A stretch of 64,000 bases of DNA from assembly GCF_045037415.1 (NCBI RefSeq), contig NZ_CP173438.1; one strand, given 5' to 3'. The position numbers and the translations under genes are program-made. Positions 22,467 to 22,703 of the stretch are shown in pieces (the stretch's first letter is position 1; each line of letters begins with the position of its first letter). The notes beneath the pieces are model-generated. The model saw only the letters and a list, made by a program, of their open reading frames with translations. It had not been told where the DNA came from and made no database searches. This DNA is from Escherichia coli. Its GTDB lineage: Bacteria; Pseudomonadota; Gammaproteobacteria; Enterobacterales; Enterobacteriaceae.

Positions 22467-22496
22467 CTTCTTCTTTGCCTGCCCATCCCTTTCTGA

Positions 22497-22513
22497 CAGC
22501 AGAAATCATGCCA
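22497..22513 (-). promoter_or_regulatory. Putative sigma54 (-24/-12) promoter for zraSR
   Basis: Minus strand reads TGGCATGATTTCTGCTG, a GG-N10-GC arrangement close to TGGCACG-N4-TTGCW. Confidence 0.55.
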
Positions 22514-22564
22514 TCTTTTATCAGCGCTTACCCTGCGCTGTAACACAAAGGCTTAAGTTTCAAT

Positions 22565-22610
22565 GAGTAAAAATGACTCGCTACCCACAACAGGCGAGTC
22601 ATTTTTACTC
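22565..22610. promoter_or_regulatory. Perfect 17 bp inverted repeat, probable ZraR enhancer site between zraP and zraS
   Basis: GAGTAAAAATGACTCGC - 12 bp - GCGAGTCATTTTTACTC; the arms are exact reverse complements. Confidence 0.6.
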
Positions 22611-22652
22611 GTTTATCATGCCAGATTACCCGTCATATCAGCGTTTCGCCGT

Positions 22653-22668
22653 TGGCACGAAAGATGCA
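22653..22668 (+). promoter_or_regulatory. Sigma54 promoter of zraP
   Basis: TGGCACGAAAGATGCA, a close match to TGGCACG-N4-TTGCA, about 35 nt upstream of the zraP ATG. Confidence 0.65.
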
Positions 22669-22703
22669 ATACCCGAAGTAAGACAACCACTGGAGGATTA
22701 ACC

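Follow-up and report, generated by a model that had tools for sequence, protein, structure and literature searches.

Two putative ZraR sites and twin sigma-54 promoters in the zraP-zraSR control region of Escherichia coli

Between the divergently transcribed genes zraS and zraP of Escherichia coli lies a short piece of DNA, positions 22467-22703 of a stretch of 64,000 nucleotides that we analysed (the whole stretch is called the window throughout), and it is this piece, 237 bp long, that concerns us here. Open reading frames (ORFs) and RefSeq annotation place its ends exactly where an earlier note on the same DNA, made from the letters alone, had put them. We hold with high confidence that the segment is the shared enhancer, together with the twin sigma-54 promoters, of the ZraPSR envelope-stress and zinc system of E. 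coli, driven by the response regulator ZraR. Such a region is already known: it is the zraP-zraSR control region of strain K-12 itself, found in another strain. Zinc induction, sigma-54 occupancy and the binding of ZraR to the spacer between the genes come from the literature, and the anatomy, statistics, conservation, geometry and protein domains were computed by us.

The zra locus and its two promoters

E. coli SK1144 is 100% identical to the window over 601 bp spanning the intergenic region and is annotated with zraR, zraS and zraP, and the same 601-bp segment is found in 5420 of the 5426 complete E. coli genomes, with zraS and zraP annotated every time. The protein translated from zraR has the Pfam domains Response_reg, Sigma54_activat, AAA_lid_14 and HTH_8 (a Fis-type helix-turn-helix) and carries both GAFTGA and the Walker A sequence GDSGTGKE, and its best match in the PDB is 1OJL, the crystal structure of hexameric ZraR (E=4e-178). 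A bacterial enhancer-binding protein needs an AAA+ domain with GAFTGA as well as a DNA-binding domain, and the product of this adjoining gene has both. The coordinates of the genes and of the features between them are collected in Table 1.

Table 1. Genes, promoters and candidate regulatory sites of the zra locus, in coordinates of the window
Feature	Positions	Strand	Remarks
zraR	19768-21093	-	Sigma-54 enhancer-binding response regulator; ORF and RefSeq
zraS	21090-22466	-	Sensor histidine kinase; ORF and RefSeq; Pfam HisKA, HATPase_c
Predicted zraSR start	22487	-	21-nt leader; the -12 GC doublet has its C at 22499
PzraSR -24/-12 element	22498-22514	-	ATGGCATGATTTCTGCT; 17.8 bits, top score of the window; identical to K-12 motif OS39
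CACAAA block	22544-22549		Invariant or nearly so in Escherichia, Citrobacter and Salmonella; at roughly -57 to -62 counted from the predicted start of zraS
ZraR site 1 (putative)	22565-22579		Dyad GAGTAAAAATGACTC, left arm; centre 22572
Site 1 core	22567-22577		GTAAAAATGAC; kept in 20 of 22 sequences, single changes in the other 2
Spacer between the arms	22582-22593		Length conserved, sequence varies; K-12 differs at 2 of 12 positions
ZraR site 2 (putative)	22596-22610		Dyad GAGTCATTTTTACTC, right arm; centre 22603
Site 2 core	22598-22608		GTCATTTTTAC, complement of GTAAAAATGAC; invariant in 22 of 22 sequences
PzraP -24/-12 element	22652-22668	+	TTGGCACGAAAGATGCA; 17.7 bits, second in the window; K-12 motif OS38 differs by one base
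Predicted zraP start	22679	+	25-nt leader; same 19-bp rule as for zraSR
zraP Shine-Dalgarno	22692-22697	+	GGAGGA; conservation begins at the Shine-Dalgarno and ATG
zraP	22704-23123	+	Periplasmic chaperone/signalling modulator; RefSeq start ATG; Pfam Metal_resist

The earlier note had proposed a -24/-12 motif on each strand. The one on the plus strand, TGGCACGAAAGATGCA at 22653-22668, is exactly as claimed, and the one on the minus strand, TGGCATGATTTCTGCT, is indeed present at 22513-22498; only its outer limit, which had been drawn at 22497, takes in one base too many. Scoring with a position weight matrix, which the note had suggested as a check, was done with a matrix trained on 40 other sigma-54 motifs found by chromatin immunoprecipitation sequencing (ChIP-seq) in K-12 (Bonocora et al. 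2015, PMC4591121), those of zraP and zraS being excluded, and the two elements came out first and second among the roughly 128,000 positions of the window; the training motifs have a median of 15.7 bits, and about 0.17 sites as strong as the zraP and zraS motifs would be expected per random window. The simpler pattern TGGCAYN6TGCW, which both promoters match, has three occurrences in the window where 0.77 would be expected. Both also resemble TGGCAC-N5-TTGCW, with the 10-bp separation of GG and GC doublets that marks a sigma-54 promoter. The single base by which PzraP departs from OS38 (A in the window, G in K-12) sits in the non-consensus spacer.

That both motifs are genuine sigma-54 sites is borne out by experiments of three kinds. 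ChIP-seq in K-12 gave sigma-54 peaks on TTGGCACGGAAGATGCA (zraP, OS38, FAT 39) and on ATGGCATGATTTCTGCT (zraS, OS39, FAT 9) (PMC4591121), and these peaks on both zra promoters were obtained without zinc; in Salmonella, sigma-54 was found on both promoters by immunoprecipitation and microarray (ChIP-chip), and in response to a constitutive activator zraP rose 16-fold and hydHG 3.7-fold, both increases depending on sigma-54 (PMC3844500); and genomic SELEX (gSELEX, in vitro selection of genomic fragments) with the RpoN holoenzyme gave a peak within the zraS-zraP spacer (PMC8743547). The starts listed in Table 1 follow the rule of Bonocora et al., who place a start 19 bp downstream of the motif centre, and our values agree with the leaders that they give, 25 bp for zraP and 21 bp for zraS (PMC4591121). 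A scan of 22380-22780 gave no sigma-70 promoter, and for that reason the basal expression of zraSR is left without an explained source.

By gSELEX the zraP/zraSR spacer was the single high-affinity target of ZraR, recovered in 81 of 86 clones (PMC8249747), and ChIP-exo (immunoprecipitation followed by exonuclease digestion) placed ZraR peaks upstream of both zraP and zraSR (PMC7657598); reviews, too, describe divergent sigma-54 promoters of zraSR and zraP under ZraR control (PMC4987338). The suggestion that ZraR acts on this divergent region stands on binding data located in the very spacer that we describe.

Two dyads within one inverted repeat

What is it in this spacer that ZraR might recognise? 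The most conspicuous object is the inverted repeat to which the earlier note had drawn attention, and its arms, GAGTAAAAATGACTCGC (22565-22581) and GCGAGTCATTTTTACTC (22594-22610), flank a 12-nt spacer, TACCCACAACAG, each being the exact reverse complement of the other, just as had been said. With one mismatch allowed, the arms reach 20 nt each at 95% complementarity. Perfect arms of 17 nt make this the longest perfect inverted repeat in the 64-kb window (loops of 3-40 nt), where the runners-up have arms of 12 nt, and in 30 random 64-kb sequences generated by a Markov-1 model the longest arms were of 9-12 nt. In a full-text search of the literature the arm sequences matched only unrelated primers and no description of a ZraR site was found; two papers in which ZraR appears refer to it for its hexameric structure alone.

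A single 17-bp inverted repeat, as the note had it, is nevertheless only half of the description. The perfect repeat is real, and the single unit is better divided into two: the dyad GAGT-N7-ACTC occurs once inside each arm and nowhere else in the window, so that two such dyads stand 31 bp apart. The exact 11-mer core is likewise absent elsewhere in the window, and both cores have the form GT-N7-AC, as in the enhancer sites of NorR. The middle of the core, AAAAATG, is asymmetric, and this asymmetry is mirrored between the two sites in all 22 sequences that we compared. That is, the cores point in opposite directions, and the enhancer is therefore two-fold symmetric and looks alike from both promoters, a property that suits bidirectional use.

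Those 22 sequences come from a comparison of related loci. A search with ZraP among species-representative genomes yielded 21 orthologous loci (Escherichia, many Citrobacter and Salmonella enterica subsp. arizonae), whose zraP upstream regions were aligned; counts of sites are given over 22 sequences. Invariant or nearly so in this alignment are both -24/-12 elements (conserved in 21 of 21 loci), the Shine-Dalgarno sequence with the start codon, and the two 11-bp cores, while the 12-nt spacer and most of the flanking sequence drift freely. In every one of the 21 loci the dyad cores occur together with zraR, zraS and zraP. Within the 15-mers, positions 2 and 14 vary as R and Y, and most Citrobacter loci have GGGT...ACCC at site 1 and GAGT...ACTC at site 2. 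Five of the six Escherichia sequences, and S. arizonae as well, have arms that are perfectly complementary to each other; in the Citrobacter loci this complementarity is lost.

It is this last contrast on which our preference rests. Because the symmetry within each arm is mostly kept, whereas the complementarity between the arms is lost in the Citrobacter loci, the repeat is better read as two putative, independent ZraR dimer sites than as one long palindrome or hairpin. From the symmetry of each dyad, and by analogy with NorR and NtrC, we infer that each arm would bind one ZraR dimer.

Geometry, a proposed mechanism and its rivals

The centres of the two sites are 31 bp apart in 21 of the 22 sequences and 32 bp apart in the remaining one, or about three helical turns; multiple sites spaced by whole helical turns, an arrangement that favours oligomerisation, are a feature of bacterial enhancer-binding proteins, and the 31-bp spacing has it. 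In the window the centres lie at -76 and -107 from the predicted zraP start and at -85 and -116 from the predicted zraS start. Citrobacter and Salmonella have a longer form of the region, with centres at -87 and -118 (zraP) and at -84 and -115 (zraS), and the motif coordinates published for Salmonella LT2 agree with it (PMC3844500). On the zraS side, all loci have 71-73 bp between site 1 and the C of the -12 GC doublet. On the zraP side, the distance from site 2 to the C of the -12 doublet falls into two classes, 63-64 bp (Escherichia) and 74-75 bp (Citrobacter and Salmonella); from site 2 to the -24 element of zraP, in other words, Escherichia is shorter by one helical turn, 11 bp, in a stretch (between 22611 and 22652 of the window, some 70 to 120 bp upstream of zraP in the related loci) that is otherwise unconserved. 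All of these distances (31 bp, 64 or 75 bp, and 72-73 bp) are close to whole turns of 10.5 bp and are consistent with a constraint that would hold the ZraR sites to one face of the helix.

The earlier note had called the repeat unusually close to both promoters, at 40-60 bp, and here we differ. The edge-to-edge gaps are indeed 42 and 51 bp; the usual distance of an enhancer-binding protein is 80-150 bp upstream of the promoter, and measured from site centre to start the distances are normal or at the short end of that range, the Escherichia proximal site being the one at the short end. The closeness is an artefact of measuring, because the gap between edges is not the functionally relevant distance. 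Nor does the sharp bending of DNA that was thought to follow seem called for: looping is required here as at any sigma-54 promoter, and nothing about it is exceptional.

How might the parts work together? We picture RNA polymerase with sigma-54 waiting in closed complexes on both divergent promoters. Zinc, lead or envelope stress would be sensed by ZraS, and ZraR would become phosphorylated; each 15-bp dyad would bind one ZraR dimer through its Fis-type helix-turn-helix; and the two dimers on the DNA would nucleate an AAA+ hexamer, for which a third dimer would have to come from solution, if the analogy with NtrC holds. This hexamer could then loop to either promoter, where its GAFTGA loops would touch sigma-54 and the hydrolysis of ATP would drive formation of the open complex. 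The outcome would be that ZraP is made and that zraSR is positively autoregulated.

One further block in the spacer may or may not belong to this machinery. The sequence CACAAA, which lies between site 1 and the promoter of zraS, is without a counterpart on the zraP side; near it, at 22530-22535, ACCCTG is partly conserved. In three Escherichia loci CACAAA makes up part of a third GT-N7-AC, GTAACACAAAC, at a distance of 27 bp from site 1. As a third ZraR site here we rejected it: GT-N7-AC stands at a conserved position only for sites 1 and 2, and GTAACACAAAC is found neither in the window nor in K-12. A search for a site of integration host factor (IHF) between enhancer and promoters, another check that the note had suggested, gave a mixed answer, that is, weak and partly conserved matches on the zraS side and no convincing site. 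The IHF consensus WATCARNNNNTTR has no perfect match in any of the 22 sequences. In 10 of the 22 loci a weak match, with one mismatch, occupies one and the same position between promoter and site 1 on the zraS side and overlaps CACAAA; the window has at least two mismatches at that position, and nothing IHF-like is conserved on the zraP side in the 22 sequences. Genome-wide ChIP-exo showed no general enrichment of IHF upstream of RpoN sites, in a study that does not mention zraP (PMC9104697).

It is nonetheless tempting to imagine, and we rate it as unlikely, that the enhancer consists of more than the two ZraR sites and that CACAAA is an unrecognised third protein site. It could be a weak bend site of the IHF type, or a low-affinity ZraR site out of phase with the others. 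If there were such a third site, it would tune or cap the autoregulation of zraSR independently of zraP, much as the low-affinity “governor” sites of NtrC do at glnAp2, and, taken with the whole-turn distances, which the 11-bp indel preserves, it would imply that the division of one ZraR hexamer's output between the two promoters is set by a phase-locked geometry.

Other explanations of the repeat deserve a hearing. Suppose that all 46 bp of the element form a single binding unit, in which each 17-bp arm is a half-site for one large oligomer. The arms are, after all, perfect complements in the window strain and in K-12, a change in one arm of S. arizonae is mirrored in the other, and the mirrored orientation of the AAAAATG core is kept in 22 of 22 sequences. 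We still consider this improbable: each arm has its own dyad, GAGT-N7-ACTC, of the GT-N7-AC form to which NorR binds as a single dimer, and most Citrobacter loci keep the symmetry within the arms while breaking the symmetry between them. A dimer with a Fis-type helix-turn-helix, moreover, contacts neighbouring major grooves, which are some 11 bp and not 31 bp apart. The same loss of pairing bears on the idea that the repeat acts as a nucleic acid structure, either a cruciform in the DNA or a hairpin, terminator or attenuator in RNA. As single-stranded DNA it does fold into a hairpin of 20-21 bp at -18.8 kcal/mol (z = -8.9 against shuffled sequences). It lies, however, upstream of both predicted starts, between divergent genes, and would be absent from either sigma-54 transcript; there is no T-run and no terminator-like site in 22380-22780; the pairing of the arms is not conserved, most Citrobacter loci having 2 of 15 positions mismatched; and the 11-bp cores are invariant even where paired changes would have sufficed. 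Of all the alternatives we give this one the least credence, and it strikes us as barely plausible.

There is, finally, the thought that another factor (Fis, IHF or some other regulator) binds the repeat and that ZraR binds elsewhere in the spacer. An A/T-rich 15-bp dyad that begins with G and ends with C may resemble Fis-type sites in outline, and the ZraR binding data resolve only as far as the spacer. The 237-bp spacer, on the other hand, holds no other conserved dyad, its only other conserved block being the 6-8 bp around CACAAA, and the cores keep company with the three zra genes in 21 of 21 loci while the 11-mer is unique in the window. The abstract of Leonhartsberger et al. (2001), too, is reported to have HydG (ZraR) sitting on inverted repeats of the zraP-zraSR region, and we regard this alternative as very improbable.

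Our own reading of the segment, as a pair of ZraR dimer sites serving two sigma-54 promoters, has its difficulties as well, and several facts count against it. A review of Salmonella in 2016 gives the enhancer sequence of ZraR as “not known” (PMC4987338), and EcoCyc, as of 2015, classed both zra promoters as predicted and not experimentally confirmed (PMC4591121). The gSELEX and ChIP data assign ZraR to the spacer and to no specific bases within it; the core AAAAATG is not palindromic, only five of seven positions being symmetric in each pair of half-sites; and the 11-bp indel counts as only one evolutionary event, which makes it weak evidence for a constraint of phase.

Neighbouring features and comparison with known systems

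Several observations around the locus can be recorded on their own account. In E. coli the periplasmic sensor domain of ZraS (about 21894-22346 on the minus strand, residues ~41-191) comes in two sharply distinct forms. The form in the window has about 60% protein identity to that of K-12 (53-81% at the nucleotide level) and differs from it by a 7-residue indel, and everything around it is nearly the same: ZraP is 97.9% and ZraR 99.3% identical, ZraS has 6 differences after residue 198, and zraP, the intergenic region, the cytoplasmic part of ZraS and ZraR are 95-99% identical as a whole. Among complete E. coli genomes, 4183 have the window type at 95% identity or more, 1236 (K-12 included) match it at 60-80%, and none falls between. 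E. whittamii (92%) and E. albertii (83%) have the K-12 type of sensor domain, another Escherichia clade (91%) has the window type, and the two types are about as distant from each other as each is from Citrobacter or Salmonella. A search of the literature at our disposal found no paper describing this dimorphism.

The genes zraS and zraR share a 4-nt overlap (21090-21093), which suggests translational coupling of the two. Downstream, zraP on the plus strand and yjaH on the minus strand converge, with their stop codons one base apart (23123-23125), and any terminator of zraP must therefore fall within the coding sequence of yjaH. An ORF of 186 amino acids (22563-23123, plus strand), in frame with zraP and with its ATG inside the enhancer, is a mechanical artefact; we rejected it because the RefSeq start of zraP, its Shine-Dalgarno sequence and the onset of conservation all lie where Table 1 places them. 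In E. coli WS0115A (NZ_CP035882.1) the match to the window begins only at 22666, within the -12 element of zraP, and the enhancer and the start of zraS may have been deleted or interrupted in this genome, one of about 5420.

Elsewhere in the window, the only other perfect inverted repeats with arms of at least 12 nt and short loops are at 51383-51410 and 4595-4625. Weaker sigma-54-like motifs occur at 46102-46118 (-), 27488-27504 (+), 57064-57080 (-), 27080-27096 (+) and 39082-39097 (-); these five either score 13.4-14.3 bits or match the simple pattern, lie within the range of random sequence, and may be either chance matches or examples of the numerous intragenic sigma-54 sites described in E. 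coli.

Set beside K-12, the region is the same locus, zraP-zraSR (hydHG), with identical -24/-12 cores, 17-bp arms and distances throughout; the intergenic region of MG1655 has 6 substitutions in 237 positions, none of them in the arms or in consensus promoter bases, and the adjoining ZraS sensor domain is a different allele. The region has been characterised since 2001, and there is very little new in the finding itself. What we add is modest: two GT-N7-AC dyads 31 bp apart across three genera, and an 11-bp indel that separates Escherichia from Citrobacter and Salmonella. The zraP promoter is already in use as a zinc biosensor promoter, and the anatomy of the sites could guide both the design of sensors based on PzraP and the annotation of ZraR sites.

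A parallel in architecture is NtrC at glnAp2, where an activator built, like ZraR, of receiver, AAA+ and Fis-type helix-turn-helix domains binds two high-affinity dyad sites about 31-32 bp apart and works as an oligomer on a sigma-54 promoter. The NtrC sites at glnAp2 are at -108 and -140, and the consensus site is TGCACC(A/T)4TGGTGCA. The recognition sequence is a different one, and at zra the putative sites are shared by two divergent promoters, to which they lie closer (-76 to -116). At glnAp2 there are additional low-affinity sites.

At norR-norVW, norV alone is known to have a sigma-54 promoter. The enhancer of NorR is otherwise much like that of ZraR, consisting of inverted repeats with a GT-N7-AC core in a divergent intergenic region beside the gene of the activator, and in the NorR sites changes of GT to GG and of AC to CC abolish function (PMC2831303). 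NorR is, like ZraR, a single-target regulator by gSELEX (PMC8249747). The difference is one of number and of accessories: NorR has three sites, all of which are required, and an IHF site as well (PMC2831303), whereas zra has two sites and no convincing IHF site.

In the arrangement of its promoters zra resembles hycA/hypA, where E. coli also has sigma-54 promoters placed back to back, the motif centres being 128 bp apart there as against 154 bp at zra (PMC4591121). The activator of that pair is FhlA, which responds to formate, and its enhancer sequence is CATTTCGTACGAAATG (PMC4987338). With hycA/hypA for company, zra is one of at least two back-to-back pairs of sigma-54 promoters in E. coli.

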